From the sequence record OL631484.1: a DNA stretch of 64,000 bases; one strand, 5' to 3'. Below are positions 7,495-52,885 of the stretch, piece by piece (position 1 is the first letter of the stretch; the number at the start of each line of letters is the position of its first letter). The translations under genes and the position numbers were made by a program. This DNA is from Escherichia phage ECML-606-1. The notes beneath the pieces were generated by a model that saw only the letters and a program-made list of their open reading frames with translations, was not told the DNA's origin and searched no databases.

Positions 7495-7498
7495 TTTT

Positions 7499-7766: not shown

Positions 7767-7783
7767 AGCCTGAGGAGTAACCC

Positions 7784-8299
7784 ATGAATATCTTTCGCCG
7801 CATCCTGAATAAAATCTTTGGCATCCCACCAGTGCCACCAGAGCCGAAGATCGAGCCGCCAAAGTTCGGCGGTGATTTCCCGCGCCCGGTCTCCGTCACC
7901 ATGAAGGCTACCCAGACCGTCAAGCAGGATCCGATGGCTGCGGCGGTCGCCCGTGCAAAAAGGGACGCGGAGAAAACTGCCGTAAAAGGCAACGTCAGCA
8001 GCGCGAGCAGCAGCTCAACACAGCGCCCATTTATATCCCTGTTAGATCCGACTCATCCGCTCTATCCTTTTAATGGCGTGCGGGATGATGATGCAGCCAC
8101 TCAGCACCGCGTACAGCATCAGGACGCGACGACGATCAGCGATACCACGCACCGACACGTCGCCAGCCATTCTGAGCCAGTGCGTAGCCATAGCTCGCAC
8201 AGCAGCAGCCATTCAAGCCCAAGCTATGACCATAGCCCCAGCCATGACAGCAGCCCATCCTATGACAGCTCACCGTCACACCACGACAGCAGCTGGTAA
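7784..8299 (+). CDS. hypothetical protein with Ser/His-rich repetitive C-terminus
   Basis: 171 aa, GAGGAG SD, C-terminal SPSYD/SPSHD repeats; only plus-strand gene inside the structural module. Confidence 0.5.
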   Translation: MNIFRRILNKIFGIPPVPPEPKIEPPKFGGDFPRPVSVTMKATQTVKQDPMAAAVARAKRDAEKTAVKGNVSSASSSSTQRPFISLLDPTHPLYPFNGVRDDDAATQHRVQHQDATTISDTTHRHVASHSEPVRSHSSHSSSHSSPSYDHSPSHDSSPSYDSSPSHHDSSW

Positions 8300-10915
8300 T
8301 TAATCGTCACCTTTCGAAATGAAGCCGGAGCAGCCAATATCCTCCGGCTTCACCTGCATCATGATCTCATGGCAGGATCTGGTCTCCGGGTCGTAGTTCA
8401 CACAGCGCCCGCAAACATCCCCGCGATACTTCACGTTGTTCACCTCATCCATGTAGCTCACCAGCGTCTGATCGACGCCGATATCCAGCGGGCTCAGTCG
8501 CTCGATCTTCACCTGCGGGGCATCCGGCAGAATAAACGTACTGGTGCCATGGGCGCGACTCCATGCGACATCGCACAGCAGGTTTGCGTAGGAGAAGTGG
8601 GGATCGATGCCGATTTTCTTCACGCTGCGCTTGTACTGGTTCGTTTCCTCGTCCTTCTCAGCCACCAGCGCCGTTTTGGTGAAGTGCGTGAACATTACCG
8701 GGGCCACGGCTTCCACGCGCGTGACGCCCTTCTCACGAATCTCCTGCACCAACCCCTGAGGGTCTGGGATGAGGCAGATTGGCTCGTCGGCAGTGAAGCG
8801 GGCCATTGAGACCTGCATACACTTATACTGGTCAATGCGGACGGTGTAGCGATCCTGTTCGTTCTCGTCGGTGCGCACATCGGACTTGTCCAGCTTCATG
8901 CTGTCATTCCACTGGATCATGCCATCCGCCACGGTGCCGAAGCTGTTACAGATGAATACCCGGCCTTTGTGACGGTTGGCGAAGCGCTTGGCGTCGTTGT
9001 AGTTCGGGTTGATTTCCACCACGCAGCAAGCCACGCCGTACTGGTTCATCAGCTCGCTACAGCGGGCAAACGGATCCTCGCTGTAAATCATTTCGATGTG
9101 GACAATTGCTTGGTGGCCGGAGGGCAGTCGCTCCTTGATAACCACCACGTTAAACTGGCCCATCTGGTCAATACCCATGTAGCAGTTATCCGCGCGGGAC
9201 TTCCACTGCACGCCAAAACGCAGGCCATGCTTAACGCAATTCGCCAGGTGTTCCAGCGTTACCGGAACCAGCGACGGATCGAGGAACGGCTTGCCCAGCT
9301 TACGGTTATAGAAGTTTTTCATATCCGTAGCGTTGTTGAAGGCGGAAATAATCTCGCCGGGGCTGATTGTCGGTGACAGGAACTGCGGGAAGTGCGCCGA
9401 CCGGATGCACATTTCCCCTTCCTCATTCTCCGGCGCATCCGGGATCCATTCCCCGCGCTGCGTGTCCTCAATCCATCCTCCGCAGCTGTAGCAGACATAT
9501 CGGTGGCGTCTGGTGTCCGGGTCGTACTTAATGCACTGCGGGAAATAGTCATCCAGCGGTTTCTTTTCGAGGCAGTGCGGGCATTCGGTATGGAAACGGT
9601 ACTGGGATCCCAGCTTGTACCAGTGGTGGATATCGGAGTCGGGCCAGTTGGCGGTGGAGCCCATCAGGCTGTAACGGATCGGGGATGCAGATAGACGCTC
9701 GCGCGTTTTCTCCATCTGCTCCAGTGACATTTCCTGCACCTCATCGAAGCTCAGGACATCCATCGGGATGGATTCGGTAGTCGCGCGGCCCGATGTCCAG
9801 CTGAATACAAACATCGCCTCACCGATGCGACGGGTACGCACGTTACCCTCACCTTTCTTGCGACCGCCGCCTTTCTCATCGTCCTGCACCATCAGCGCAT
9901 GTACCTCAGGTACGGTGCGCACAATCGGCATGAAGCGCTCGGAGGACTTGATCCCCGCCAGCGCGGCATCCGGCAAGAACATGCCGATAGTCATCGGCTG
10001 GAAGCGCAGGCCAAGGTAAATAACAGCGAGCATTTCCATGACGGTAAAGCCCACCTGCGCACACTTCATCAGCACCAGCGTTTTGCGGTATGCCTCCTCG
10101 ACGGTGCTGGGGATCTGGTCATAAATCCACGCCATCGCCGGGCGGTTGTCCAGCTTGAACGGGCGACCATCCACTTTGAGGCCCGTTTCGCCCAGCCGGA
10201 TGCACCACTCCAGAAAGGTCTCGTTTGGCTTGAGGATTTTCTGCGAGGCGGTCAGGACAAAGGTCGTATCGAGGAATTCAGCATCGTAGCGCTGGCGCTT
10301 CTCATCCCCGGTCGTGTTGTCCATTTTCTCCAGGAATGCCGCGTCGAGATTATGGCGGTTGGTCTCGGTCGGCACGCGGCGTCGGAACCAGTCAGGATCC
10401 AGCTCGGCCTCCATCCACAGGCGATAAAAGTCGTGATTCTTCCCGTAGGCACCGGACAGGAACCATGCACTGCCGTGGTACTCGCGCAGGCACTCAGCCA
10501 GCGTGTCACCCCAGATCTGCATGAAGTTGTAAATCTCGCGCACGTCATCAATGATCATCAGGCCATACTGCCCATTAACCTCTTTCAGGCTGTCAGCCGC
10601 GTAAAGGTCAATGTACTGGCCCGATAGCAGCGTGATGCGCCTGCTGGTTGAGCTCTTGATGAGGGGATCGATGGCCTGTACGATCCGCGTGCGAACCTCC
10701 ATAAGGTCTTTGTACGTAGCGCTCATCCACATCGCCGGGGCAGGGTTATTCATGATGCCCTGTTTCCCAGCCACCAGCGCCTCTATGCCAAGCGTTGTTT
10801 TTCCTGCCTTCTCGCCCATGGCAATAACGTTAAAACGCGCCGCACGGTCGATACAGACCTGCAACGCGTCATTGAGAATGGGCAGCTTAATTTTAACGGT
10901 CTTTTGGCGTGCCAT
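8300..10915 (-). CDS. terminase large subunit, lambda GpA-like, with N-terminal P-loop extension
   Basis: 871 aa; KCAQVGFT (res 284-291) resembles the gpA KSARVGYS P-loop; additional Walker A GEKAGKTT (34-41) and Walker B LMIIDDV (119-125); C-terminal Cys clusters; ATG at 10915 with AAGGA SD. Confidence 0.65.
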   Translation of the reverse strand: MARQKTVKIKLPILNDALQVCIDRAARFNVIAMGEKAGKTTLGIEALVAGKQGIMNNPAPAMWMSATYKDLMEVRTRIVQAIDPLIKSSTSRRITLLSGQYIDLYAADSLKEVNGQYGLMIIDDVREIYNFMQIWGDTLAECLREYHGSAWFLSGAYGKNHDFYRLWMEAELDPDWFRRRVPTETNRHNLDAAFLEKMDNTTGDEKRQRYDAEFLDTTFVLTASQKILKPNETFLEWCIRLGETGLKVDGRPFKLDNRPAMAWIYDQIPSTVEEAYRKTLVLMKCAQVGFTVMEMLAVIYLGLRFQPMTIGMFLPDAALAGIKSSERFMPIVRTVPEVHALMVQDDEKGGGRKKGEGNVRTRRIGEAMFVFSWTSGRATTESIPMDVLSFDEVQEMSLEQMEKTRERLSASPIRYSLMGSTANWPDSDIHHWYKLGSQYRFHTECPHCLEKKPLDDYFPQCIKYDPDTRRHRYVCYSCGGWIEDTQRGEWIPDAPENEEGEMCIRSAHFPQFLSPTISPGEIISAFNNATDMKNFYNRKLGKPFLDPSLVPVTLEHLANCVKHGLRFGVQWKSRADNCYMGIDQMGQFNVVVIKERLPSGHQAIVHIEMIYSEDPFARCSELMNQYGVACCVVEINPNYNDAKRFANRHKGRVFICNSFGTVADGMIQWNDSMKLDKSDVRTDENEQDRYTVRIDQYKCMQVSMARFTADEPICLIPDPQGLVQEIREKGVTRVEAVAPVMFTHFTKTALVAEKDEETNQYKRSVKKIGIDPHFSYANLLCDVAWSRAHGTSTFILPDAPQVKIERLSPLDIGVDQTLVSYMDEVNNVKYRGDVCGRCVNYDPETRSCHEIMMQVKPEDIGCSGFISKGDD

Positions 10916-10927
10916 TGTGAATCCTTT

Positions 10928-10950
10928 GGTAAAAGGGCCCCGAAGGGCCC
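10928..10950 (-). terminator. terminator between tail fibre and terminase genes (GGGCCC-CGAA-GGGCCC hairpin)
   Basis: GC hairpin 10935-10950 followed on minus strand by TTTTAC. Confidence 0.5.
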
Positions 10951-10960
10951 TGAATGGGGG

Positions 10961-15990: not shown

Positions 15991-18900
15991 TTATACGCTC
16001 GGCAGGATGATACATTCCACAACGGTCATGCCGCTGCCGCCAAAGCCATCGGCGTCCTTAGTCCCCGATTCGTTCACCTTAGTGATGAGTAGGCGGGTAT
16101 TAGGTGGCAGGATAATTTCTTTTTCCCCGGTATGGTGCGAGATAGATCCACCACTCGGAAGCGAGCCAGCGCCCGCATAGATACCTTTTACGCCGGGGCC
16201 TGCTGTCATTTTGAGGTGAATATTACCACTCCACACGTCTGGACTGATAGACGTGGACATAATTGCAGGCTCCATGATGACCTTGCCGACCGACGCTTTC
16301 AGCTTGGAGAGATCACCGCTGCCCAGACTGAATTTGCGCCCGAACGTGGTACCCGGCGAAATTTCATGGCCCATACCAGACAGCGCCTGCGCTGCTGCTT
16401 TCGCTTCTGCGCTTGGGTTGCCCTTCCACAGTCCGCTGTTCATCTGCTTATAACTGCTACCAGTATACGCCTGCACGGCCTGCTTTTGTGTCATCGGCAG
16501 CTTTTCCCACACTTCCTGTGCTGCTTTGGCATAAGTGTTTGTGGTCAGCGTGCCAGCCTTGAAAGTGGTTTTAGTAATGCCAAGGTCTTCCGGCTCAACA
16601 ATCCCCGGATGGCCCAGCACCAGCAGGTTCCCGATCTTGTCTGCATCGTTACCGCTCCAGTTTTCCGGCTTGTATTCTTCGTGCATCGAATACAGCGGGT
16701 GATCGCCGCCGATACGGAACTGCTCGGCTTCATGCCCGGTAAGCTGGCTCTTAATCTCGTTAATCGCCTGCATCGCGTAGCCTTTGATGTGCTGCGATGG
16801 GTGATCGAGCACTGGCACCTGTCCGGTAACAGCTCCGGTGTCTTTGTCAAAGGTTGGCGCGGTCAGGCCGCGAATGGCTTCCGGGTCTCCGGTCAGCGCC
16901 GCAGAATAAATGGCCTGCGCCGCGTCGTGGTTCCCTTTGTTCAGGAACTCTTTGGAGGACGGGCCGGATTTGCCAACGCCAGACCAGTTGAGGAAGTCAG
17001 GCGGGGTACTGATTTTCTCCGGCTTGAATTTCTGCATTTTGATGATCTGCTCGGCTTCCGGGTACTTCTCAGCCAGATACTCTTTGCGCTTGATGAGCGT
17101 TTCCACCAGCTCTTTTTTGGCCTTCTCATCGCCCGGCCCATACTGGTTGACCATGTGCGCGATTTTGGCGTCGGAGATAGCCAGCACCTTGGAGACAGAC
17201 GCGGCGATATCGGCCTCAGTCATGCCACCGAAGACGGCGGCGCTGTTCGCGTTCATCTTCGGATCCATCAGTGACTCCAGCTCCTTAACTACCGGGCCAA
17301 ATTCTTTCTTCGCACCCTGCGCACGGAACATCAGCGAGCCGCCCGCATCGACGCGGTGAATGGTGCCGTCATCTTTCAGCTGCACGTTGTCTTTCGCCAG
17401 CCCCACGACATCCCAGTTACCCAGCCACGCATCAACGGCAAAGCCTTCCAGCATACCCTTGGCCTTCGCCAGCGCTGCATGGGTTTTGGCCTTCTTGATG
17501 TTCTCCCACTTCGAGGCAATAGCCATTTTCCCGTCCTTGGTGACGATCATGGCGTCCTGCGCGGACAGGCCAGCGGCGCTATACAGTTTCGCTGCCAGCA
17601 CCTCAGCCTTGGCGTGCTCCTCGTTATCCGGGAACTTCACATACCATTCCTGCCCATCGGCGTCCTTCATTTTCATGCCTTCATTCGAACCGCCTTGGTT
17701 GCCCCCGGTCACTGTCCACTCATCGACGCTGATCGGCTCTTTCTTCTTCCACTGGTACTTTTTGACCTCCATCGGGCCATCAGCGGCAAGGCCATTCTCT
17801 GCCGGGTTGCTGGTCGCGGCGGTAGCATTCATCAGCTGCGCGACGCCATTCATAGCATAGGTGCCATTCACCTCAGGGTTATAACCGGACTTAACCTTGA
17901 TCCCATTAGCCATCAGCATCATCGACGCATATTGCGCCAGCGCCTTTTTACCCGGCGCGGTCGGGCCATACTCCGTTGAGACCTTAATTTTCATCCCAAA
18001 CTCGCCATAAATCAGCATCGAACCATCGGCTTTCTGCATGATGACGCCTTTGGTGCCGCCGCCTTTGGTCAGCTTGGCTTTGAGGTTATCTACATATTTC
18101 ATGTAGTGATCCTGCTGCCAAGCGCTCAGGCCAAGCGCAGCGAAGTCAGGTGCTGGGATCTCGTCAGGATTGGCCCTAACCCAGCGCCCGTTTTTCAGGA
18201 TCAGCATCCCATTGGCACCCGGCTTCATGTCGCCTTCTTTCGGGCCATCGCCTTCTTTCTGGCCCTCGTCGGCTTTCTTAGCATCTTCTTCGGCTACGGT
18301 GTTTTTGATAGCCGTCAGGATCCCTTCGATAGCCACAGGAGTAAAGTCGTTGATGATAAGCACGCTCTTAATGGTGCTGACCGCATCCACTTTGTCCGGG
18401 TTGGCGTCGTAGTATTCCTTGCACGCCACCGACGCCTTGACGACCTTTTGCAGCCCGGTTTTGGTCTCCGCGATGCTCTTGATGTCGTCCAGCAGTTTCA
18501 GGTCGATATTACCCAGCTCCGGCGCGGCAGGTTCAGGCGCAGGCGCAGGCTCCTCAGCTCCGGTGATCTGATCCTGTACAAAGGTCATGGTGCTGATCGC
18601 GTAATCCGTCATGCTCATCTTGACCACATCGGTGCCCTGATTCGCCATCAGCGCATACGCGGACTCTTTGACGCTGTTCAGCACGGCCTCTTTCATTTCC
18701 GGCGAGTCGGTGTACTTCGCCAGCATCGCCATCGCTGCCAGACCATCCAGCGCATCTGCATCCGCCATGCTATCGCCCTTGTAACTGGCTTTCGGGATCC
18801 CCTGCGGGACGCCGTGCATGTTGATGCTGTCTTTCAGTATGGACTGGAGGACAGGGATATGGGCCACGTTATCGCCTGCGGCCTTCACGATGTCCTGATA

Positions 18901-21900
18901 GGTGGCAGGGTTGTCGCCTTTCTTCGCCACGTAATCCTGTACAGCCATCAGCGTTTCGAGGTTGTCTTTGGCGTTGTTGAAGACCAGCCCAAGGTCATAC
19001 ATGTTTTTCGGCTTGCCCGGCGCAGCGGTCAGCTTGTCCAGCACCTCAGCCATGTACTCCTTGTACTTGGTACCGTTGATCGTGGTGCTCGGCGTCACGT
19101 TCTGCTCATATTTCATAGCCTCAATGAGCAGCTTTTTGCTGTTCTCATCCTTCGCCAGTGTTGCAGCGATGGCGTAGCCCTGAAAATCAGTTGCCTCGGT
19201 CGAGTAGAAACCAACGTCCGGCTTAATCGGCAGGTTGAGCGGCTTGCCATGCTTTTTGAAGTAAGCCTGACCGATTTCAGACGCAGCGTAGACGTGCCCG
19301 CTGTTCATTTTCAGGATATTGTCGATAACAGTCGTGTACGCGCCCTTATCGCCATGGTTATCCTTGATGAATTCCAGACCGATGCTGGTCGCATCATCGC
19401 CGTTCGCGCCAGCGAGGGCCTGTTTGAGCGCCACAATCTCGCTGCCCGCGCTGCCATTGGCTGAGGTCTCAGGCATATCCTGCTGTAAGATCCAGTGCCC
19501 ATTATGGAAGACCAGAATACCGCCTTTACCCTGCTTGGTATCACCTTCTTTCGGGCCATCCTCTACCAGCCACTTATTGACCTCCTGCTGGTACAGTTTA
19601 ACCTGCACAGCAGCTGGCTCTGAAAGGTGAAGCTCGCTCAGCTCATTAAAGTGCTTGGCGATCACATCAGGATCTGATTCTTTGCCTTTGTGAACTTCTT
19701 CGGCAATGACGTTATAGAGGGTCTGCACTTTCGTGCCATAGGTTTTCACCGTGTCGCTGGTTGGTGATACCAGCGGTTTTTCTGGCTCAGTCCCGTAAGT
19801 CTCACTCCACCACTTACCATAGGCTTTCTTGCCAGCGATAAAGAACTCATTCGCCAGCTCGTTAAACCCATTGTCCTTCATGGCCTCAGCCAGCACCACC
19901 AGCTGCGGCGCATCATGCCCATTCGCCGTCATCCAGTCGCCAGCAATCGCGTCGGCCTGTTTTTCGTCCTTGGCATCTGTCAGCGCATCAAAGGCGCTTT
20001 CCCACATGGCGTAATCATTCAGGATCGCTTTCTTCTCCTGCTTACGCTCATGTTTGGTGGCAATCTGCTCGGATTTCGCCGCAGCCTGAGACTTCTCGGC
20101 CCATGAATCGTACAGCTTCCCGACGCTGGACTCGGAGAAGGCCAGATCGCTACCGTAATAGGTAGACGCCTGCTCAATGAATGCCTCGCCTTTTGTCTTC
20201 GCCCACTCGTTGAACTCAGCCACATCGGCAAAATCCGGCAGCTGCGGCTCAGGGGTTGGCGCACGCTCCTGCTTGATCTGCGGTGGCGTCGGCAGGGATT
20301 TCACGGAGATATCGCCCAGCTCTTTCTTGGCGGCGGTCACGGCTTCGATGATCCACGCGGACAGATCAACCTTCTGGAAGGCATCAATCAGGTTCTGGTC
20401 ATCACGGATCACTGTCACCATGTCGTTGATGTTGTCCACAGCCAGCGCCCAGTTACCCGCGTTGAGGTCATTCTGGATGTCCTCACAGATGCCGTCGATA
20501 AACGCATCACCAGTCTGCGGAGGATTGGAGAAAGTCTTCACTCCCTCAGGCTTAGGCGCAGCAGCAAGGCCCAGAGACTCCGCCAGATTGACCGCAGGCT
20601 CTTTGCCAGCCATTACCTGCTGGTAAACCTCATTCTGCGTGTTGGAGAAGCCGGAGATATGGCCCCAGTCGCCCTTCTCGTTAACCCACATACCAGATCC
20701 CGGATTCTTCGGATCCGCGACGATGACTGCGCTGGTATTGGTCGGGTAAACGCCTGCGTCTGGAGTCGTGGACAGCACGCCATTCCACATGTTCTTGATG
20801 ACGTTTTGCTGCTTCTGGGTCAGGTGATTCGGCTTGCCCAGCTCCACCAGCTCGGTCGGGTACTCGCTATGGTGATAGTCGGAAATGTAGCCCAGATTGT
20901 CCGGGGTTTTGGTGTTGCCACCAAAGCCGATCAGTTTCAGGTACTGTCCCGCTTGGAACGGCTTAGCCAGCGGCTCACCCTTCTTGCTTATAGGCCATGC
21001 GGTCGCGTGCCCCATCAGCACTTTCAGGTACGGCTTACCGTCCTTGTCGTAGGTCTGGATGATTGAGCCTGCGGGCAGGTTCGGCATATCGGAGATCGAC
21101 AGCTTCTGGCCCTTTTTGAACTCACCAGCGACAGGCTGATCCTTGAGCGGCTCGCCAGTCTCCTGATTGTGCCAGCGACCGTCTTTGAAAACCTGCATCC
21201 CGTTTTTGCCCATGCGGGTATCACCTTCCTGCGGGCCTTCCTCAGCCCGGACGGTTTTCTGCTGCTCAACCTCTGCGCTGGCCTTCTGATCCTTTTCTGC
21301 CTGGCTAAACTGGCCCAGCATTGGATGCACGGCGTCTTTGCCGATAACCACTTTGATATCCGGGTAGCCCAGCGCTGCCAGCGCGTTATTCGCAGCCTTG
21401 GCGACTTTGAGCCCGTAGGTGTTTTTTCCGTATGTCATCGCCAGAATGCCGTTGATGTTGCCTACTTCGCCAGCGGCCTTGATAGCGGCGATCTGCGCGT
21501 TGTAGCTCTTGGCATTCTTAATGTTCTCCGCGACGGCGAACTGGCTCCAGTCGATAGCGTCCATGGCCTTCTTCGACACGGATGCTTTCGGGGCTGGCTT
21601 GCCTTCGGCGGTGTCCGGCTGCGCCGGGGAGGTAGCGATGATTTCAACCGCGCTCAATGGGCTCGGCTCCTCGGACTGCACCAGCGGCTTATTCGGATTC
21701 TCACCCGTCAGCAGCGCCAGCTTTTGCCCGTAGAGGTTCAGCAGCTTTTTGCTGTTCGGGGTGATGCCCTTCCAGCTTTTCGCCTTGCTCTTGATAGCTT
21801 CCAGCTCCGCCAGACTGGTGGCGTCGATGACCTTCTGAGCCTGCGCCTCATACGCGGTGCGCACGCCAGTGGAGTTTTTGCCGGATTCAAATTTAGGCAT

Positions 21901-22764
21901 GACGATTTCGCCTGGCTTCGGTGCTTCGGCAGCAGGTGTTGAGGCTTTCTGGACTTCTTCTTTAGCTGCGTTTTTTTTCTCAGGTGAAGGAGACGGCCCA
22001 TCTTTTGGCATAATAAGGCTTAGTTTTTTTGCTCCACCCGGTTCAGTTTTAAAGTATCCAAACTGCGTACCGTAATTCTCAATCGCGTGCAGCTGGTGCT
22101 GTTTTAAATCACCAATCTCAATAGTGATGACGTTATTTTTTACTTTGTATGCTTCAATCGGTGGCAGACCTAGGTAACTCTCAATTCCAGAAACAATGGC
22201 TTGTTGTTTGGCTGTCAAATTACCTGTAGCTGGTTTTGTTGCTGCCTTTGCCTCTTGCGCTACGGCTTCAATGGCCTGCTCAGCCATCTGATCGACGGTC
22301 TCAGGCTCTCTCTCGTATGTGGCGATGGCAGGGTGCTCACCCGCTTTCTGGCCCGCGCTGACCTTCTCCTGCGAGCCCATTTGCTCCAGCAGATAGTTGG
22401 CAATCGCCACCAGCTTTTTACCGTGGGTGTTCACGCCATAGGATGATCCCAGAATCGCCGCGATATCGCCGTTGGCAGCGTGCTGCAACAGGTTCGGGAC
22501 GTGTTTCTGGTTGAAATGCTTAATGTCTTTGTTGGTCGCCTCTTTCTCAGCAGGATAGAGCAGCTGGCTCGACTCCTCCTTAGGCATGGCGTAAGGCTTA
22601 TGGCCTTTGCCACCAGCTTTAGGGTGCGCGGCTTTCGGGGCGTTCTTGACGCCCTTCATGTCCGGCGTGGTTTTCTTCCAGCGCCCATTGATCAGAGCAT
22701 AGCCCGCTTGGTGGGCGAATTTTTGATTAAGTGCTTTTGCGAGGACAAGCATGGTGGCCACCAT
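15991..22764 (-). CDS. giant virion-associated protein with C-terminal ADP-ribosyltransferase-like domain
   Basis: 2257 aa; C-terminus has TFGRKF, IMSTSIS (STS) and GEKEIILPP (ExE); recurring internal motifs EGDTKxGxxGxxVFxNGRW and ILGSSYGVNTHG / ILAMTYGKNTYG. Confidence 0.65.
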   Translation of the reverse strand: MVATMLVLAKALNQKFAHQAGYALINGRWKKTTPDMKGVKNAPKAAHPKAGGKGHKPYAMPKEESSQLLYPAEKEATNKDIKHFNQKHVPNLLQHAANGDIAAILGSSYGVNTHGKKLVAIANYLLEQMGSQEKVSAGQKAGEHPAIATYEREPETVDQMAEQAIEAVAQEAKAATKPATGNLTAKQQAIVSGIESYLGLPPIEAYKVKNNVITIEIGDLKQHQLHAIENYGTQFGYFKTEPGGAKKLSLIMPKDGPSPSPEKKNAAKEEVQKASTPAAEAPKPGEIVMPKFESGKNSTGVRTAYEAQAQKVIDATSLAELEAIKSKAKSWKGITPNSKKLLNLYGQKLALLTGENPNKPLVQSEEPSPLSAVEIIATSPAQPDTAEGKPAPKASVSKKAMDAIDWSQFAVAENIKNAKSYNAQIAAIKAAGEVGNINGILAMTYGKNTYGLKVAKAANNALAALGYPDIKVVIGKDAVHPMLGQFSQAEKDQKASAEVEQQKTVRAEEGPQEGDTRMGKNGMQVFKDGRWHNQETGEPLKDQPVAGEFKKGQKLSISDMPNLPAGSIIQTYDKDGKPYLKVLMGHATAWPISKKGEPLAKPFQAGQYLKLIGFGGNTKTPDNLGYISDYHHSEYPTELVELGKPNHLTQKQQNVIKNMWNGVLSTTPDAGVYPTNTSAVIVADPKNPGSGMWVNEKGDWGHISGFSNTQNEVYQQVMAGKEPAVNLAESLGLAAAPKPEGVKTFSNPPQTGDAFIDGICEDIQNDLNAGNWALAVDNINDMVTVIRDDQNLIDAFQKVDLSAWIIEAVTAAKKELGDISVKSLPTPPQIKQERAPTPEPQLPDFADVAEFNEWAKTKGEAFIEQASTYYGSDLAFSESSVGKLYDSWAEKSQAAAKSEQIATKHERKQEKKAILNDYAMWESAFDALTDAKDEKQADAIAGDWMTANGHDAPQLVVLAEAMKDNGFNELANEFFIAGKKAYGKWWSETYGTEPEKPLVSPTSDTVKTYGTKVQTLYNVIAEEVHKGKESDPDVIAKHFNELSELHLSEPAAVQVKLYQQEVNKWLVEDGPKEGDTKQGKGGILVFHNGHWILQQDMPETSANGSAGSEIVALKQALAGANGDDATSIGLEFIKDNHGDKGAYTTVIDNILKMNSGHVYAASEIGQAYFKKHGKPLNLPIKPDVGFYSTEATDFQGYAIAATLAKDENSKKLLIEAMKYEQNVTPSTTINGTKYKEYMAEVLDKLTAAPGKPKNMYDLGLVFNNAKDNLETLMAVQDYVAKKGDNPATYQDIVKAAGDNVAHIPVLQSILKDSINMHGVPQGIPKASYKGDSMADADALDGLAAMAMLAKYTDSPEMKEAVLNSVKESAYALMANQGTDVVKMSMTDYAISTMTFVQDQITGAEEPAPAPEPAAPELGNIDLKLLDDIKSIAETKTGLQKVVKASVACKEYYDANPDKVDAVSTIKSVLIINDFTPVAIEGILTAIKNTVAEEDAKKADEGQKEGDGPKEGDMKPGANGMLILKNGRWVRANPDEIPAPDFAALGLSAWQQDHYMKYVDNLKAKLTKGGGTKGVIMQKADGSMLIYGEFGMKIKVSTEYGPTAPGKKALAQYASMMLMANGIKVKSGYNPEVNGTYAMNGVAQLMNATAATSNPAENGLAADGPMEVKKYQWKKKEPISVDEWTVTGGNQGGSNEGMKMKDADGQEWYVKFPDNEEHAKAEVLAAKLYSAAGLSAQDAMIVTKDGKMAIASKWENIKKAKTHAALAKAKGMLEGFAVDAWLGNWDVVGLAKDNVQLKDDGTIHRVDAGGSLMFRAQGAKKEFGPVVKELESLMDPKMNANSAAVFGGMTEADIAASVSKVLAISDAKIAHMVNQYGPGDEKAKKELVETLIKRKEYLAEKYPEAEQIIKMQKFKPEKISTPPDFLNWSGVGKSGPSSKEFLNKGNHDAAQAIYSAALTGDPEAIRGLTAPTFDKDTGAVTGQVPVLDHPSQHIKGYAMQAINEIKSQLTGHEAEQFRIGGDHPLYSMHEEYKPENWSGNDADKIGNLLVLGHPGIVEPEDLGITKTTFKAGTLTTNTYAKAAQEVWEKLPMTQKQAVQAYTGSSYKQMNSGLWKGNPSAEAKAAAQALSGMGHEISPGTTFGRKFSLGSGDLSKLKASVGKVIMEPAIMSTSISPDVWSGNIHLKMTAGPGVKGIYAGAGSLPSGGSISHHTGEKEIILPPNTRLLITKVNESGTKDADGFGGSGMTVVECIILPSV

Positions 22765-26556: not shown

Positions 26557-26577
26557 AAAAAAGGCCCCGTAGGGCCT
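26557..26577 (-). terminator. rho-independent terminator (GGCCC-CGTA-GGGCC hairpin + U-run)
   Basis: hairpin 26561-26577 followed on minus strand by U6. Confidence 0.55.
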
Positions 26578-26664
26578 TCGCTTATTTACTGTAAACGGGG
26601 CTCAGACCATGATCTGAGTGCCCGTGTCCTGCTCCCCCGGTCGGGGCATTCCATACCGGGGCTT

Positions 26665-28558: not shown

Positions 28559-28587
28559 AATTATTTACGGCATACGTGACGCATCAA
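28559..28587 (-). promoter_or_regulatory. sigma70-like promoter TTGATG-N17-ATAATT with CGTCACGTATGCCG element in spacer
   Basis: minus-strand hexamers; overlaps stop codon of methyltransferase gene. Confidence 0.35.
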
Positions 28588-30095
28588 AAGGCATCGTCAT
28601 CTTCATCAGGATCCGGCAGGTGCCGATCCTCGGTCTCCTCCGGGAATTCCTCTCCGGTGTAGAAGTGGACGGCCTTACGCCCGGTCAGGTTCTGCCAGCG
28701 ACGAATCGCCACATCAGCAAAGCCCAGATCGAGCTCCATCACGCGTGCGCATACGCCCATTCGCTCGGCGGCCACCAGTGAAGTACCAGAGCCGGAGAAG
28801 GGATCCACCATGATGTCATTCAGGCGCACGGTGTTCTTCATCATGCGCTCCCACAGCTCCACGGGCTTCTGCGTCGGGTGCAGGTCGCTGCGGTCAGGAC
28901 GCGGCACGCTGACCACGCTGCCCAGCATTGACTCCACCTTGGCGTCGCCTTCCACCCGCATGATGAGATCGCCGTACTGGAAATACCAGTTACCCTCGGC
29001 ATCCTGTTTGAATGGGCTTGAGTCGCCAAACTCCGCGACGGTCGTTTGCTTCCTGCCACCGTGCCAGCGGTGCTTGGCACCCTTGCGCCAGCCGTACAGG
29101 ATTGGTTCATGGATGCTTTGGAAGTCAGCCATGCCCAGTGTCATGCTGTTCTTCTTCCAGATGACATTCTGGGAGAAGTGGAAACCGACCTTTTCAAACG
29201 CCCAGCGCAGGCCATGGGCCATCTTGTCGGAGTGGCTGATATAGGTCACGCCGCCCGGCTGCATCGCGTCATAGGCGCAGCTCAGGACATTGACGAGGAA
29301 CTGATTAAAGTCCTCCTCGTTTTTCCAGTCGTTAGCGATCCCGCCAGTGCGCGAGCGCTCGCCTCCGATGGCCTTATCCATGCGCTTATTCTTCTTGCCC
29401 ACATCGACGTTATACGGGGGATCGGTCAGCATCATGTTGGCCTTCTCGCCCTGCATCAGCGCCAGCCAGCTTTCCGGCTGCTCAGCATCGCCAACATACA
29501 GGCGATGAGCGCCCAGCACCCACAAGTCGCCCGGACGGCTCTTTGGCTCGTCAGGAAGCGGTGGCGCATCATCGGGATCGCTGTCACCTCCTCCTCCCTC
29601 CATCGGCGGCAGCTTCATGATCTCGTCCAGCTGCTCAGGGTCGAAGCCGATAACATCCAGATCGTAGTCCAGATCAGCCAGGGCATTCATTTCGATGCGC
29701 AGCATGTCCATGTTCCACTCGGACGCCCGGCCCAGCTGGTTATCCGCGATGATGTACGCGCGGCGCTTAGCCTCATCCCAGCCAGTGCAGTCCAGCGTCG
29801 GCACCATGCCAATAGGGATCGGTGTGCCATCCGGGAAAGCAATTTGCTTGCCCTCGCTGTACAGCTTCATCGCTGCCAGCTGGCGTCCATGGCCTGCCAC
29901 AATCCCTTGCTCATCGACGAGGATGGCGTTAGTCCACCCGAATTCAAGCATTGACGCGGCGACCTTCTGGACGTGCGCCGGGCTATGGTCGTTTGAGTTG
30001 TTCACGTAGGGGATGAGGCTATCAACCGGGCGCAGCCGGATCATCGGGGGGATCACGTCCAGCCCCAACATCTTGTTAAAATCTTTATCAGCCAC
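28584..30095 (-). CDS. DNA methyltransferase with N-terminal ParB-like nuclease domain
   Basis: ParB/Srx-like VAGHGRQLAA; methyltransferase motif IV LTDPPYNV before motif I VDPFSGSGTS (beta-class N6A/N4C order). Confidence 0.7.
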   Translation of the reverse strand: MADKDFNKMLGLDVIPPMIRLRPVDSLIPYVNNSNDHSPAHVQKVAASMLEFGWTNAILVDEQGIVAGHGRQLAAMKLYSEGKQIAFPDGTPIPIGMVPTLDCTGWDEAKRRAYIIADNQLGRASEWNMDMLRIEMNALADLDYDLDVIGFDPEQLDEIMKLPPMEGGGGDSDPDDAPPLPDEPKSRPGDLWVLGAHRLYVGDAEQPESWLALMQGEKANMMLTDPPYNVDVGKKNKRMDKAIGGERSRTGGIANDWKNEEDFNQFLVNVLSCAYDAMQPGGVTYISHSDKMAHGLRWAFEKVGFHFSQNVIWKKNSMTLGMADFQSIHEPILYGWRKGAKHRWHGGRKQTTVAEFGDSSPFKQDAEGNWYFQYGDLIMRVEGDAKVESMLGSVVSVPRPDRSDLHPTQKPVELWERMMKNTVRLNDIMVDPFSGSGTSLVAAERMGVCARVMELDLGFADVAIRRWQNLTGRKAVHFYTGEEFPEETEDRHLPDPDEDDDAF

Positions 30096-31950: not shown

Positions 31951-32823
31951 CTACTCGCCAGAGCTAGGGCAGACGTGAACCGAATCACTGGCGTAGCACA
32001 GCAGGCATTTCGGGCAGTGCATCACATGGGATGTCTTATGGCTAACCAATGGCACCGCGCAGGTGTGAGGTGTCCCTGCTTGGTAAACAGCTCCACAGTG
32101 CTTGCAGCTTTCTGTGTGAACTGATCCCTGCCAGTGTTGCAGGTTGTTGTTTGGGTTCCACGGGCTCTTTGGATCCTTCCAGTCGAATGGCGTAACGAAC
32201 TCGCCGGGGCGCAGCTCAACAGCGTTTTTCGGTGCCTGATTTCCCCAGCTATCCCATCCCGGATAAGCGTCGCGCGCGAACAGCTCAATGCGCGGCACAT
32301 CGCCGTATAGCTCCTCGATGCGGTGGAAAATCTCTTTCGGCTTCTGGGAGTGCTCGCCCAGACAGGAGAAGATGATCTGGCGCACGCCGTTACTGACGCG
32401 CTCCAGACCTTTCCCGCGCACGGCGATCAGGCAGTCCTCGGAGTTGGCCCGGCTGTAGTTGCCACCGTTGATTTTTACCTCGGAATTCAGGAAGTCCAGC
32501 ATGTCCTCCCAGTCGAAGAATTCCGACTTGTCCAGCTTGCGGTTGAAGCGCTCCCCAGCGTTCTTGTTGAACTTCACCCACGTAAAGCCCTTCATGGTGC
32601 GCACATCGAAGCCCCACGCCTCAGCCAGCGCGATAGCCTCCTGCGCGTGGGTGGAGGTGTACCACATAATCAGCACAGCATCGTCATCAGCCAGCGACCA
32701 GACCGGGAGGCGCTTGATGTCCTCTTTCTTCATGGTCAGGTAGTGGTTTTCAGCGGCACCGTTGCTGATTGTGTTGTCGTAGTGCCATGGCGGATCAGCC
32801 AGGATAACTTTGTACTTAGCCAT
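31951..32823 (-). CDS. MT-A70-like adenine methyltransferase
   Basis: N-terminal ILADPPWHY (DPPW) motif; Cys-rich C-terminus. Confidence 0.6.
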   Translation of the reverse strand: MAKYKVILADPPWHYDNTISNGAAENHYLTMKKEDIKRLPVWSLADDDAVLIMWYTSTHAQEAIALAEAWGFDVRTMKGFTWVKFNKNAGERFNRKLDKSEFFDWEDMLDFLNSEVKINGGNYSRANSEDCLIAVRGKGLERVSNGVRQIIFSCLGEHSQKPKEIFHRIEELYGDVPRIELFARDAYPGWDSWGNQAPKNAVELRPGEFVTPFDWKDPKSPWNPNNNLQHWQGSVHTESCKHCGAVYQAGTPHTCAVPLVSHKTSHVMHCPKCLLCYASDSVHVCPSSGE

Positions 32824-33381: not shown

Positions 33382-33858
33382 TTAATCCTTGAAAAAAGTT
33401 ACCCAGTGGGTGTTGGCCCGGATGCCGGACGGATGACCAAAGGCGGGCTTCATTTCCGCCAGTTTAAGCAGCTCGCGGGTTGGCACATGCAGCTCATTCC
33501 ACTTGAAGATCAGCGTGCCGTGTGGCTTGAGCACGCGCCATGCCTCAGCGAATCCGGCGCGGATGTCCTCGCGCCATGTCTTTTTGTTCAGGATGCCGTA
33601 CTTCTTGCCCTGCCAGCCATTAGGGCCGCACTTGAGCAGATGAGGCGGGTCGAACACGATGAGGCTAAACGTGGCGTCGGCAAACGGCAGCGCCCGGAAG
33701 TCAGCCACGATGTCGGGATGGATTTTCAGCTCCCGGTCATCGCATAAGATATGCTCCTCGTCCCTGATATCCATGAAGACGACGCGAGGATCCTCCCGGT
33801 CGAACCAAAACATGCGCGAACCGCAGCACATGTCGAGAATGGGTTTGTTAGTGGTCAT
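33382..33858 (-). CDS. putative SAM-dependent DNA methyltransferase
   Basis: ILDMCCGSRMF (motif I-like) and LIVFDPPHLL (DPPH). Confidence 0.5.
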   Translation of the reverse strand: MTTNKPILDMCCGSRMFWFDREDPRVVFMDIRDEEHILCDDRELKIHPDIVADFRALPFADATFSLIVFDPPHLLKCGPNGWQGKKYGILNKKTWREDIRAGFAEAWRVLKPHGTLIFKWNELHVPTRELLKLAEMKPAFGHPSGIRANTHWVTFFKD

Positions 33859-37527: not shown

Positions 37528-37893
37528 TTATCGGGTTTGTTTTGAATGGTCGAGCTCGGCGAGTGCCTGCTCCATGTTGTTTACGACTGTCACGAAACGC
37601 GGGTTAGCGCTTGGATCGCGAGCAAGGTCTGCGGTGTGTTTCAGCAGAGCGCGGGCAGCATTCACCGTCTTGGTGATAGCTGGCAGCGTGCCGATAGACA
37701 GCATCTGCATGAAGTAGAACTCCCCCGGCATGATGGTTGACAGCATTTCGCCGCTACCTGCCGGATCCCTGCGGCCTTCCTCCTTGCGCTGGTAATTGCG
37801 AAGGGTATGGCCCAGCAGGTCAGCCATTGCCTGCTGCGTCATGCCTGCGGCAATGCGGGCCTCACGTACTTCTGCCCCGGTGATTTTAATCAT
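37528..37893 (-). CDS. XRE-family HTH transcriptional regulator
   Basis: AEVREARIAAGMTQQAMADLLGHTLRNYQRKEEG helix-turn-helix; perfect palindrome just upstream. Confidence 0.6.
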   Translation of the reverse strand: MIKITGAEVREARIAAGMTQQAMADLLGHTLRNYQRKEEGRRDPAGSGEMLSTIMPGEFYFMQMLSIGTLPAITKTVNAARALLKHTADLARDPSANPRFVTVVNNMEQALAELDHSKQTR

Positions 37894-37933: not shown

Positions 37934-37949
37934 ACGTCATTATTGACGT
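37934..37949. promoter_or_regulatory. perfect palindromic operator candidate ACGTCATTATTGACGT
   Basis: 16-bp inverted repeat 45 nt upstream of the XRE regulator start codon. Confidence 0.5.
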
Positions 37950-38696: not shown

Positions 38697-38720
38697 GGGA
38701 TGATCCTTGCGTTAGATGGA

Positions 38721-38748
38721 ATAAAGGCCCCGATAGTGGGGCCTTTTG
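38721..38748. terminator. bidirectional hairpin terminator downstream of YadA-like gene
   Basis: AGGCCCC-GATAGT-GGGGCCT flanked by A/T runs. Confidence 0.5.
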
Positions 38749-38771
38749 ATTGTAGCGCGATTCTTTACGTC

Positions 38772-40067
38772 TTACCAGCCGTAAGACACGCCAGCGCCGA
38801 TCACAAAGTTATGCTGGGTGTCGTTGGACACGGACGCCTTCACAACGGTGTTCTGAGAGGCGCGGGCAGAGAAGCCCACAGCCAGCGCAGACTCACCATC
38901 AGTGTTACCAGCACCAGCGCCGATAGCAAAGGTCTGGTGCTCCAGTACCTGCGGGATGTTAGCCATGGCGGCGACGCCTGCGATACCAGCCGACGCACGT
39001 TTGCGGTTGTCATCGATCTGTTTGTTCAGGTCGGCAAACTTGCTATTGGTCTGCGATTCCAGCCCCTGAATGCGCTGCTCATGGTTGGCAATATCGGCGG
39101 TGTTCTGGGCTACGCGCTTATTGGTCGCATCCAGAGCCTGACGGTTCGCCTCAGAGTGGGCATATGCCGAATCAGCGCGAGACTGCGCATACGCGCCAGT
39201 GTCCTGCGCCTGCTTCACGCCAGCGCTCAGCGTGGTGAACTGGCTTGAGCGGGTGGAGGTCTCAGCCGCCAGAGCAGCATCCTGACGCTTCTGATCATCG
39301 CTAAACACGCTGGTGGTCACACGGTCGTTAACCTGAGCCTGCAAATCAGCATCAGCGGCTTTGCGGTCGTTGGTTTCGTTGGTGATAGCCACGCCGTTAT
39401 TCACCACGCCAGCCAGTGCCGCATCGGATTTGGTGTTGCTTTCGGTGATCGCGGTGTCTTGACGGGCCTGATCCGCTACAAAGTCAGTCGCATTGACTTT
39501 GGTCGCCAGACCAGCATCCAGCTCCGGCTTGGTGGCAAAGGTTCCAGCCTTAGTTTGCAGGTCGATGATGGCAGAGCCATTGGTGGCTACGCCTGCCAGT
39601 GCGGCATCCGCTTTATCACTATTCGTGGAGATCAGCGCATCCTGATCGTTGTCGCGGACTGCCTGCGCAGCCTTATCGGCATCATACGCGGTCTGGTCAA
39701 CCTTATCAGCCAGGCCATTCAGTGCCGCCTGCGCATCGGTCTTGGCAGAGCCAGCCATATCCAGCGCGGAGCTCGCTTCCTGCTGCGCGGCATCCGCTTT
39801 CTGGTCAACGGCGATCACACCCAGCTTGGTGCTTTGCAGGTCGGCATCCACACTGGTGATGCGGTCGCCCAGTTGAGTATCGCGGGTCTCAGAGTCCAGT
39901 TTGTTCTGGGTGATTTGGTTCTGGTGATCGTTGATCAGGTCGCTGGTTACATTTGCGCGGGCGTCCTGAATGCGGTCGTATGCAGACGGGGACGGCGCAG
40001 CGATTGCAACAGAAGCGGTGGAGGTCAGTGCCAGTGCCAGTGCGATTTTGGTCAGTTTCATCATCAT
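38772..40067 (-). CDS. YadA/Eib-like trimeric autotransporter adhesin
   Basis: signal peptide MKLTKIALALALTSTASVAIA, coiled-coil stalk, C-terminal anchor ...GIAGVAAMANIPQ...FVIGAGVSYGW; start among ATGs 40061-40067. Confidence 0.65.
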   Translation of the reverse strand: MMMKLTKIALALALTSTASVAIAAPSPSAYDRIQDARANVTSDLINDHQNQITQNKLDSETRDTQLGDRITSVDADLQSTKLGVIAVDQKADAAQQEASSALDMAGSAKTDAQAALNGLADKVDQTAYDADKAAQAVRDNDQDALISTNSDKADAALAGVATNGSAIIDLQTKAGTFATKPELDAGLATKVNATDFVADQARQDTAITESNTKSDAALAGVVNNGVAITNETNDRKAADADLQAQVNDRVTTSVFSDDQKRQDAALAAETSTRSSQFTTLSAGVKQAQDTGAYAQSRADSAYAHSEANRQALDATNKRVAQNTADIANHEQRIQGLESQTNSKFADLNKQIDDNRKRASAGIAGVAAMANIPQVLEHQTFAIGAGAGNTDGESALAVGFSARASQNTVVKASVSNDTQHNFVIGAGVSYGW

Positions 40068-40115
40068 TATCTCGTTAAGTACCATTTAAAGGGGTTTTGT
40101 GTTGGAACGAGGCTA

Positions 40116-40144
40116 ACTATACGGCACAGGTGACGCGTCCGCAA
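40116..40144 (-). promoter_or_regulatory. sigma70-like promoter TTGCGG-N17-TATAGT with operator-like palindrome in spacer
   Basis: minus-strand hexamers; spacer contains ACGGCACAGGTGACGC. Confidence 0.45.
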
Positions 40145-40244
40145 TAGCGCAATAATAAATATTTCGTATTATTTGGCTGGAATGATTCAGGGGACTGATT
40201 GGAAAGGATATTTATTTTAGCCCCCGTGGGCTGGGGGCTAAATA

Positions 40245-40505
40245 TTAGCGCGGGATGAATGGCTTCTGGGTAAAGACCTCAGCCTGCGGGAAGTCAAAAG
40301 AGACATCCGGTGCCATTGCCTGAGAAGGCAGTGACTTGATGTGCTGGGATCCATCAGGCAGGAATACGCCAGCAAGGTAACGCGGCACCTGAATGACGTT
40401 TGCAGCCAGTGCATAGCCCGGTGGTGCTGCGGGATTAACGGTATCGTCGATTGTAGCCATGGGTAAAAGCCCTCGTTGTGTCTGAGGGCTCCAGTATGCC
40501 GTCAC
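40245..40505 (-). CDS. hypothetical protein
   Basis: 86 aa ORF. Confidence 0.3.
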   Translation of the reverse strand: MTAYWSPQTQRGLLPMATIDDTVNPAAPPGYALAANVIQVPRYLAGVFLPDGSQHIKSLPSQAMAPDVSFDFPQAEVFTQKPFIPR

Positions 40506-40720
40506 TACCTCCGGCGATTAATCTCATGGTACAGCGCAGCCATGAAAATACCGATGGCGACGGGCCAGCACAGCATGACCATAACCAGCGTCTGGGGCGG
40601 CATGTTCTTGCCACCGATCCCCATCCTGCCTGAGATAAAGTCAATCAGGATGACTGCCGCACCGATCAGCAGTGCGACAGCGCCGTAAAATTGCAGCTTC
40701 TCCAGCCAGAAGTCACTCAT
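40505..40720 (-). CDS. small membrane protein
   Basis: 71 aa with two hydrophobic helices. Confidence 0.4.
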   Translation of the reverse strand: MSDFWLEKLQFYGAVALLIGAAVILIDFISGRMGIGGKNMPPQTLVMVMLCWPVAIGIFMAALYHEINRRR

Positions 40721-40914
40721 TGGCCCGGCTCCTCATACCAGCAAGATAGCGCGATGTATGCAGTGACAGGCCAGAGCGCAGCCTGCACCAGCAGATAGCC
40801 CAGCGCCTTACGCTTGGGGTGCATACGCGGCACCCATTTGCGCAGGCCCAGCAGCAGCACCACTAAAAAGCCAGCCCAGTACAGGGCCAGCGATAAGATG
40901 ATTTCAGTCTGCAT
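40717..40914 (-). CDS. small membrane protein
   Basis: 65 aa with two hydrophobic helices; ATGA overlap. Confidence 0.4.
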   Translation of the reverse strand: MQTEIILSLALYWAGFLVVLLLGLRKWVPRMHPKRKALGYLLVQAALWPVTAYIALSCWYEEPGQ

Positions 40915-52038: not shown

Positions 52039-52377
52039 TTAGTTACAGCGGACGGTGCCAAACGAATCGCGTCGGCAGGTGCTGCCATCGCTTCCCCGCG
52101 TCGTGCCGAAGCTGTCAGTGCGCCAGCTGTTTCCGTGGTTGTCACGGGTGGTGCCGAAGCTGTCCGTGCGGTACACGGAGCCATCGCTGCCGCGCGTGGT
52201 GCCAAACGAATCGGTGCGCCAGCTATTGCCATGGTTATCGCGCGTTGTCCCAAAGGAATCCGTGCGGTAGGTGGTGCCGTCATCACAGCGCGTGGTGCCG
52301 AAGGAGTCAGAGCGGCAGGTCAGCGCGGAGGCGTTAAAGCTGGCGGCGAGCGCCAGCAGGAGGATCAGTTTTTTCAT
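52039..52377 (-). CDS. secreted tandem-repeat protein
   Basis: signal peptide MKKLILLLALAASFNASA, then six 16-aa repeats of RTDSFGTTR(D/G)NHGNSW type with Cys at both ends. Confidence 0.6.
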   Translation of the reverse strand: MKKLILLLALAASFNASALTCRSDSFGTTRCDDGTTYRTDSFGTTRDNHGNSWRTDSFGTTRGSDGSVYRTDSFGTTRDNHGNSWRTDSFGTTRGSDGSTCRRDSFGTVRCN

Positions 52378-52857: not shown

Positions 52858-52885
52858 ATTGTACGTCACTAGTGACGTAATGCAA
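52858..52885 (-). promoter_or_regulatory. sigma70-like promoter TTGCAT-N16-TACAAT with perfect palindrome ACGTCACTAGTGACGT in spacer
   Basis: minus-strand hexamers; palindrome 52863-52878. Confidence 0.5.

Follow-up and report, generated by a model that had tools for sequence, protein, structure and literature searches.

A head-less trimeric autotransporter gene with a dyad-bearing promoter in Escherichia phage ECML-606-1

In our study, a stretch of 64,000 nucleotides from Escherichia phage ECML-606-1 (sequence record OL631484.1), called the window here, was analysed around a gene at positions 38772–40064 of the minus strand. The product of this gene was almost certainly a genuine trimeric autotransporter of type Vc secretion that is devoid of a head domain; the gene and its protein are abbreviated as TAA below. 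This identity was assigned because of the signal peptide, the Pfam anchor, the anchor fold and the C-terminal aromatic residue of the protein. The gene was preceded by a dedicated promoter with a palindromic dyad in its spacer, and this promoter very probably belongs to a dyad-bearing class, or regulon, that extends through the phage. The best explanation as a whole, in which a head-less TAA under dyad control shields the cell surface, was given a probability of about 0.5.

The TAA gene and its protein

The open reading frame (ORF) of the TAA contained 437 codons at its full extent (38772–40085, minus strand), with the stop codon at 38772–38774. With position 40064, the second of the ATG codons in the ATGATGATG run, as the start, the product was exactly 430 amino acids (aa) long, as an earlier note on this DNA had stated and as in the database entry ECML606-1_000082, to which the protein was 100% identical and which is named 'hypothetical protein'. 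Other in-frame starts were present at 40085, 40067, and 40061. Residues 1–22 (39999–40064) formed a Sec signal peptide, which the earlier note had also proposed. The N-terminus, MMKLTKIALALALTSTASVAIA followed by AP, contained a basic n-region, a hydrophobic core and an AxA site, with the predicted cleavage between AIA and AP; these elements were read from the sequence. The pLDDT of the AlphaFold model built with an alignment was below 50 at residues 1–24, and the signal region was disordered in the models with and without the alignment. Equivalent signal peptides were found in the TAA homologues, including those of Yersinia phage fHe-Yen8-01 and of the L009 clade (the labels L009, L011–L015, and L017 denote the phage-family contigs compared, L005 and L006 denote plasmids, and P-numbers denote homologous proteins).

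The passenger comprised residues 23–368 (38961–39998, minus strand); it was predicted to be helical and was rich in Ala, Asp, Thr, Ser, and Gln. In the AlphaFold prediction residues 28–368 (341 residues) were helical with short breaks, and a clear heptad periodicity (period 3.5) was confined to residues 230–370. If the 341 helical residues formed one continuous coiled coil, the passenger fibre would be ~50 nm long. Head and neck domains are typical of the TAA family, though not obligatory. In the Pfam scan of the protein, YadA_anchor was the sole domain, and YadA_head (PF05658), YadA_stalk/neck (PF05662), and Hep_Hag were not found. The related E. coli proteins P0060–P0074 were found to contain head and neck domains ahead of the same stalk and anchor.

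The YadA-type membrane anchor comprised residues 369–430 (38775–38960, minus strand). Pfam YadA_anchor (PF03895) matched residues 371–430 over all 60 profile positions (1–60) with an E-value of 2e-12 and a score of 47.4 bits, the gathering cut-off being 22.7. The C-terminus read ...FVIGAGVSYGW, and its aromatic residue W430 was invariant across 65 aligned sequences; judged from sequence, this terminal residue fits the C-terminal aromatic beta-signal for the beta-barrel assembly machinery (BAM). With the 65-sequence alignment, AlphaFold placed anchor strands at residues 379–388, 391–403, 406–415, and 420–428 (pLDDT 73–81), whereas without the alignment helices only were predicted and the anchor was not formed. 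In the Foldseek search against the PDB the top five matches were all TAA anchors, namely those of Hia (3emo, 2gr7, and 2gr8), AtaA (9vnj), and YadA (2lme), with E-values from 1e-6 to 2.5e-3, target TM-scores of 0.67–0.87, and root-mean-square deviations of 1.7–2.7 Å. The YadA-type anchor claimed in the earlier note was thus recovered by profile and by fold, and the modelling check that it had named gave a monomer with the TAA anchor fold and four strands per chain. In a trimer, this fold of a helix and four strands would give a 12-strand barrel of the YadA/Hia type.

The best match in the family libraries scanned was PHROG 17426 'adhesin' (E=1.9e-60, 206 bits), where residues 90–430 were aligned with profile positions 132–492 of 492. 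A phmmer search against all PDB chains (E<=1) gave matches only to the anchors of AtaA, Hia, and YadA. No EibD chain was returned, and the same was true for the head-bearing relative P0062. The description of the protein as Eib-like, which the earlier note had offered, was therefore not upheld, as the protein also had no head or neck domain; of the two families that the earlier note had proposed to search, YadA_anchor was found, whereas no match to EibD was returned.

The conservation of the protein, expressed as mean identity to 64 homologues, was 80% in the anchor, 73% in the proximal stalk and 33–35% in the distal passenger. Every invariant alignment column was located within residues 314–430. 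The homologues ranged from 254 to 680 aa, with obvious gain and loss of repeats in the passenger, and full-length passengers with an intact frame were maintained in every clade examined. The C-terminal half was 71% identical to the head-bearing TAAs of E. coli and Salmonella (P0060–P0074).

The TAA promoter and the dyad-bearing promoter class

A sigma70-type promoter was found at 40116–40144 (minus strand), 36 nt upstream of the first in-frame ATG. It contained the −35 element TTGCGG (40144–40139), a 17-nt spacer and the −10 element TATAGT (40121–40116), and it was conserved in Enterobacter phage phiT5282EW, the plasmids, and L013–L015. The spacer was filled by a dyad at 40121–40136, a putative operator (GCGTCACCTGTGCCGT on the minus strand, ACGGCACAGGTGACGC on the plus strand) with two mismatches to ACGTCA-N4-TGACGT; the versions in the plasmids and in L013–L015 had one mismatch. 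An AT-rich stretch with the inverted repeat AATAATA/TATTATT was present at 40151–40175 (minus strand), just upstream of the −35 element, and the AT-richness was kept in the alignment of the relatives. From its sequence, this stretch resembles an UP element and may act as one.

The dyad pattern ACGTCA-N4-TGACGT (16 bp) was derived from repeat family D5. Another pattern, ACGTCAC-N3-GTGACGT, was rejected, as its matches were at chance level only. With two or fewer mismatches, 15 dyads were found in the window against 1.94 expected, and none of 100 shuffles reached 15; CGTCA-N4-TGACG was the commonest perfect 5+5 palindrome in the window. The design of the class on the minus strand was TTGnnn, a dyad in a spacer of 16–17 nt and TAnnnT, placed 36–82 nt upstream of the gene start. 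Intergenic dyads of class promoters started at 14623, 24733, 26502, 28567, 35403, 37934, 40121, 51949, and 52863, and weaker dyads of the same class at 26534 and 47825. The dyad at 52863–52878 was perfect and lay in the promoter TTGCAT-N-TACAAT, with which the long leftward array of early genes begins. The dyad promoters, ~10 in number, were confined to the 14.6–52.9 kb array of small, mostly unassigned early-type genes, and they were absent from the replication block (57–64 kb) and from inside the structural block (0.3–13.8 kb).

At the TAA gene the dyad arrangement was kept in phiT5282EW, three plasmids, and three further phage contigs (L013–L015). The earlier note had held that the gene was driven by a promoter with the same operator palindrome as the phage early genes, and both the excess of dyads and this conservation agree with it. 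In the L009/L012 clade, the TAA of which was 52–55% identical, the promoter consisted of TTGCTA, GAGCGTCGCATTCGACG, and TACAGT, and both half-sites of the dyad were changed symmetrically to CGTCG-N4-CGACG. Such a symmetric change is the pattern expected of a site that is read by a dimeric protein. The repression of the class and its 'early' timing are both inferred from the sequence.

Two hairpins flanked the TAA transcription unit. Downstream, a GC-rich hairpin (AAAGGCCCC-loop-GGGGCCUUU) was located at 38720–38746 (minus strand), with its stem at 38723–38746, 25 nt past the TAA stop, and with a short UUUAUU tail; on folding, its minimum free energy was −20.8 kcal/mol (z=−3.1). The earlier note had described the gene as insulated by a terminator at 38721–38748. 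The hairpin itself was found; it probably attenuates transcription more than it fully blocks it, because its U-tract was short and the next gene, which starts at 38696, had no promoter of its own. Upstream, between the 86-aa gene and the TAA promoter, a second hairpin was present at 40216–40242 (minus strand; −17.6 kcal/mol, z=−3.9), and the plasmids and the Yersinia phage retained its stem with altered bases. On the transcribed strand an A-rich sequence follows this hairpin instead of a U-tract, and it was therefore rejected as a canonical intrinsic terminator; a role as a weak terminator, as the hairpin of an RNA 3' end or in RNA processing is possible. A generic promoter and terminator scan detected neither the TAA promoter nor the two hairpins, all of which were found by sequence reading and folding.

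The XRE-type gene as a candidate regulator

A gene for a 121-aa protein of the XRE type with a helix-turn-helix (HTH) domain (Pfam HTH_3, E=6e-5) was located at 37528–37893 (minus strand), two genes downstream of the TAA. A perfect dyad, ACGTCATTATTGACGT, was present at 37934–37949, 41 nt upstream of its start, as a possible autoregulation site. This dyad was kept in phiT5282EW (one mismatch) and in plasmid pPEC414_4 (perfect), and two copies of it were found in L013–L015; by its position, the arrangement would fit an autoregulated repressor of the dyad class. The HTH gene followed the TAA in the window and in all examined relatives with this neighbourhood (phiT5282EW, fHe-Yen8-01, L009, and L012–L015), and also in three plasmids, the copies of which were 85–86% identical in aa sequence. 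In L017 the TAA would lie past the contig end, yet the genes that follow the TAA elsewhere kept the same order. The homologue search with the HTH protein returned nine proteins, all of them from this phage family or from short contigs; they offered synteny only and no independent link with the dyad. The HTH protein is a possible regulator of the dyad class, at clearly less than even odds, and the link between the two is positional.

Distribution among phages and plasmids

ECML-606-1 is a myovirus of ~95 kb (94,968 bp). The DNA of the window was 91–97% identical to phiT5282EW (95.5 kb), and the window was syntenic, gene by gene, with fHe-Yen8-01 (OR620963.1), a 92.5-kb myovirus from sewage. The structural genes were located at 0.3–13.8 kb, and the TAA (38.8–40.1 kb) lay inside an array of small early genes, 24 kb from the structural module. 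The TAA was found at the same place in the divergent clades of the window, of phiT5282EW, of L013–L015, and of L009/L012, and in fHe-Yen8-01. In L011, which is distant and Salmonella-associated, it was present in the same genome region with different neighbours.

The TAA and its neighbours were also found on plasmids. Upstream of the TAA, three small genes at 40245–40914 (minus strand) encoded proteins of 86, 71, and 65 aa and travelled with the TAA onto plasmids; the 71-aa (40505–40720) and 65-aa (40717–40914) proteins, both on the minus strand, contained two hydrophobic segments each. The three proteins were 48–72% identical in aa sequence to the plasmid copies of L005 and L006. Two small mobilizable plasmids, one from Klebsiella and one from E. 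coli, carried the 65-, 71-, and 86-aa genes together with the upstream hairpin, the TAA with its promoter, and the HTH gene. The TAA block of the plasmids had ~76% DNA identity to the window and lay beside transposases, and the Klebsiella copy also retained the next gene, which encodes 182 aa. A plasmid of Enterobacter cloacae contained a shorter piece of the block with the TAA frame split. The 71-kb plasmid pPEC414_4 carried a head-bearing variant fused to the same stalk and anchor, with the same HTH gene and dyad.

Directly after the TAA stop, an HNH endonuclease gene was present in phiT5282EW (L001 6073–6609), L017 (195–731), and the E. coli KPC plasmid L005 (8361–8696). The corresponding site of the window (~38700–38771) was empty of the HNH gene and contained the terminator hairpin only. 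This presence and absence looks like an insertion polymorphism of a homing endonuclease.

In L011, a 100.8-kb contig of a Salmonella Typhimurium assembly, the region 7463–10672 contained a row of the TAA, a lipoprotein-like ORF of ~40 aa (MKKLILAVLLTMTAATAIAC...), a porin of the OmpC/F type (Pfam Porin_1), and an Acb2/Tad1-like anti-defence gene. Each gene of the row had its own terminator hairpin. The motif GTAACCGACA was found 0–2 nt before the TAA and lipoprotein starts and again upstream of the porin, and at these genes it was present instead of the dyad.

The portal protein of the window (4899–6710, minus strand) was 56% identical to the one encoded at NZ_OW485606.1 25906–27309, a plasmid of 112 kb from the alphaproteobacterium Rhodovastum atsumiense, and weaker portal matches were found on Deinococcus and Leptospira plasmids. 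At the sequence level, these matches hint at phage-plasmid relatives of the family outside Enterobacteria.

Beyond this family, the tblastn search found YadA-anchor genes in 73 phage records, many of them lytic isolates, including phiEco32, SKML-39, Hena1, the N4-like phage S6, and the jumbo phage GAP32. In BFVD at least 20 phage YadA-anchor proteins were found, including anchor-only forms of 90–122 aa in T4-like Yersinia phages. Genes of this kind recur in dozens of virulent phages of the N4-like, phiEco32-like, Vi1-like, T4-like, jumbo, and 95-kb groups.

Proposed role and alternative explanations

In the mechanism proposed here, the host sigma70 RNA polymerase would start at the dedicated TAA promoter with its dyad-filled spacer, as judged from the DNA. 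A dimeric phage regulator may bind the dyad and shut the promoter class off together, and the XRE-type HTH protein would be the best candidate for it. By homology with YadA, Hia, and AtaA, the TAA would be exported by Sec and its barrel of 3x4 strands inserted by BAM; the passenger would then pass through the barrel and trimerise, and a surface fibre of ~50 nm would result. The fibre layer may remodel the surface of the infected cell and hinder further phage adsorption, which is the least certain step. Hindered adsorption would lead to superinfection exclusion and would keep the progeny from sticking to infected cells and debris. A plasmid that has captured the module would give a standing version of the same phenotype.

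Some phages encode envelope proteins by which the use of a receptor is blocked, among them Llp of phage T5 and the Cor lipoproteins of lambdoid phages. By analogy with such proteins, surface shielding or superinfection exclusion, the latter raised in the earlier note as well, was proposed as the function of the TAA, tentatively and well short of even odds. It was favoured because the protein had no recognisable ligand-binding head, because evolution was fast in its exposed part and constrained in the anchor, because the TAA of L011 is neighboured by genes for a lipoprotein-like ORF and for a porin of the OmpC/F type, and because mobilizable plasmids of Klebsiella, E. coli, and Enterobacter kept intact copies, which there must benefit the cell. 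By the same analogy, the lipoprotein and the porin of L011 would resemble envelope proteins with which phages block a receptor or replace it. It is doubtful that the dyad promoter, the head-less TAA, the XRE repressor, and the two small membrane proteins together form a portable surface-fibre module that excludes phages and is shared by myoviruses and plasmids. If this were true, the phage would switch the module on and off along with its early regulon, plasmids would carry a constitutive, autoregulated anti-phage surface shield, and the widespread YadA-anchor genes of lytic phages would receive their first assigned function.

Several points were found to weigh against the explanation by dyad control and shielding. 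The anchor-only mini-TAAs (90–122 aa) of the T4-like Yersinia phages cannot shield a cell surface, and it is possible that the YadA-anchor family of phages shares a different function, one for which no passenger is required. The latent period may be too short for a dense fibre layer. The dyad of the TAA promoter was the weakest of the set. A search for enriched palindromes in fHe-Yen8-01 found none, and this phage had few promoter-like ACGTC-N6-GACGT sites, not clearly above chance; no such dyad was seen within the 17-kb L011 fragment. Because sites were few in the Yersinia relative and none occurred in the L011 fragment, the dyad regulon was regarded as lineage-specific. In the Klebsiella and E. 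coli KPC plasmids the HTH gene was kept, yet no dyad directly preceded it, and there the gene could be co-transcribed from the dyad-bearing TAA promoter. In the literature searched we found no functional study of any phage TAA, with genome-annotation remarks only, and no paper on ECML-606-1 or fHe-Yen8-01.

The main rival to shielding is aggregation or adhesion, in which the fibre clumps infected cells or sticks them to surfaces so that the progeny meet dense hosts, and in which the plasmid copy acts as an autoaggregation or biofilm adhesin. NadA and HadA, which are largely coiled-coil without a YadA-type head, mediate adhesion or aggregation, and the retention of the TAA gene on plasmids agrees with this rival. 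Database names for the phage homologues, such as 'agglutinating adhesin' and 'putative autoagglutinating adhesin', point the same way as annotation transfers only; they were inherited from YadA and not from experiments. Autoaggregation is described as common among TAAs, and the homotypic form is ascribed to sticky head domains (PMC7568254). The TAA of the window had no head, and no binding motif was identified in its protein. Aggregation was considered rather unlikely.

Eib-family TAAs are prophage-borne, and an Eib-type lysogenic conversion would mean expression from a resident prophage that gives serum resistance or immunoglobulin binding. The earlier note had suggested lysogenic conversion and had asked for the prophage context in bacterial genomes, and neither was supported by the comparison. 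No integrase, repressor or partition gene was annotated in fHe-Yen8-01, which was isolated from sewage, and a PHROG sample of the window proteins gave methyltransferases, a helicase and unassigned families only, with no lysogeny gene. A megablast comparison of the structural module with 5,426 complete E. coli genomes gave no match, and no homologue of the portal gene was found on enterobacterial plasmids in PLSDB. Because lysogeny genes were neither annotated in fHe-Yen8-01 nor found in the PHROG sample and no prophage or enterobacterial plasmid copies were found, the phage was treated as virulent, and the family of 90–100 kb enterobacterial myoviruses is apparently virulent. Two caveats to this reading, which also speak for the Eib-type explanation, are the contigs of 77–101 kb with TAA homologues in Salmonella isolate assemblies, which could mean carriage in the isolates, and the 56%-identical portal on the 112-kb Rhodovastum plasmid. 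With the lack of a head, a neck and any EibD similarity, and with the TAA gene placed among the promoters of the early lytic array, lysogenic conversion of this type was judged improbable.

It is very improbable that the TAA is a virion component or a receptor-binding fibre. The homologue fHeYen801_092 is annotated as 'receptor binding protein' and 'phage particle associated', PHROG 17426 and 26246 are filed under 'tail', and a 'YadA domain-containing structural protein' was reported in a cyanophage virion proteome (PMC9146016). Against this, the protein had a cleavable Sec signal peptide at its N-terminus and, at its C-terminus, an outer-membrane beta-barrel anchor with an aromatic last residue, its gene lay in the early array away from the structural module, and it was present on plasmids without phage structural genes. 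The 'particle associated' flag was unspecific, because ~52 of the 136 coding sequences of fHe-Yen8-01 carried it, including those of a primase, DNA methyltransferases, a terminase, and numerous small proteins of the early region; debris of the outer membrane in the preparation would be compatible with the flag. The virion receptor-binding protein was rejected as the main explanation on these grounds. Just as improbable is an interference of the anchor and the proximal stalk with host TAAs or BAM, for example through mixed trimers with the passenger being secondary, which would suit the 71% identity of the C-terminal half to head-bearing host TAAs, the anchor-only proteins of the Yersinia phages and the confinement of the invariant columns to residues 314–430, but which is purely inferential, leaves the full-length passengers kept in every clade to be explained, and has no precedent that we know of.

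Comparison with known systems

The TAA of the window was compared with YadA of Yersinia, Hia of Haemophilus, and AtaA of Acinetobacter. It shared with them the signal peptide, the helix followed by a four-strand anchor, and the terminal aromatic residue. Unlike them, it had no YadA_head, Hep_Hag or neck, its anchor identity to them was only 24–28%, and it was carried by a phage and small plasmids, whereas they are carried by a virulence plasmid or the chromosome. Like the Eib proteins of E. coli, it was encoded on a phage genome and had a similar overall size; unlike them, it had no sequence match to the EibD passenger structure and no head, and it was associated with no lambdoid prophage and no evidence of lysogeny. 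NadA of Neisseria and HadA of Haemophilus consist of a signal peptide, a coiled-coil passenger, and an anchor, an architecture like that predicted for the TAA; they are chromosomal virulence factors and had no detectable sequence relationship with the TAA. T5 Llp, the Cor lipoproteins, and phage-encoded porins are outer-membrane proteins that are expressed by the phage in the infected cell; they are functional analogues of the proposed shield and have no homology to the TAA.

A further close group was that of the YadA-anchor 'adhesins' of phages (PHROG 17426/26246), found in phiEco32, Salmonella phages FSL SP-058 and SP-076, SKML-39, Erwinia phage Hena1, S6, and Cronobacter phage GAP32. The anchor and the proximal stalk were shared with them (54–64% identity over the last 120–150 residues), whereas the TAA of the window had a long head-less passenger and its host was a myovirus of 90–100 kb. 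Genes of this class have been catalogued before in many virulent phages, where they were noted away from the tail genes and their function was left open (PMC3728262, PMC5449768, PMC10654107). In contrast to those descriptions, the dyad-operated promoter, conserved among relatives, the linked XRE-type gene, and the sharing of the module between phages and plasmids are defined here, and these are new.

Phage YadA-anchor genes have been flagged since 2013 as possible 'virulence genes', which matters when phages for therapy or biocontrol are assessed for safety; a name of the ECML type may point to a phage of that sort. The locus is tractable, as the gene is conserved, the promoter and a candidate operator are identifiable, a candidate regulator is nearby, and the natural plasmid copies are testable without the phage. 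If the fibre blocks adsorption, the TAA would represent a new class of exclusion factor borne by phages and plasmids. Should it be an adhesin and nothing more, the movement of its gene between lytic phages and plasmids would still be evident.

Other features of the phage

The protein encoded by the second gene of the first early operon (52039–52377, minus strand) was 112 aa long and contained a signal peptide and five tandem repeats of 16 aa (R-T-D-S-F-G-T-T-R...). The repeats corresponded to a 48-nt DNA repeat at 52084–52323, and the protein had no PHROG match. From its sequence, it is a putative further exported early protein. An ORF of 2257 aa (15991–22764, minus strand) was 51% identical to gp129 of fHe-Yen8-01, which is annotated as 'ADP-ribosyltransferase toxin, phage particle associated', and its product is probably an ejected or virion-borne effector.

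A terminator-like hairpin of 21 nt, AAAAGGGCCCCGTAGGGCCCT, was present in three near-identical copies at 271–291, 10931–10951, and 26558–26578 (repeat family D18). A 503-aa protein encoded at 28584–30095 (minus strand) contained a ParB-like N-terminal domain fused to a DNA methyltransferase (PHROG 498, E=1e-129), and further methyltransferase genes were located nearby at 31951–32823 and 33382–33858. This cluster of methyltransferases suggests heavy anti-restriction modification.

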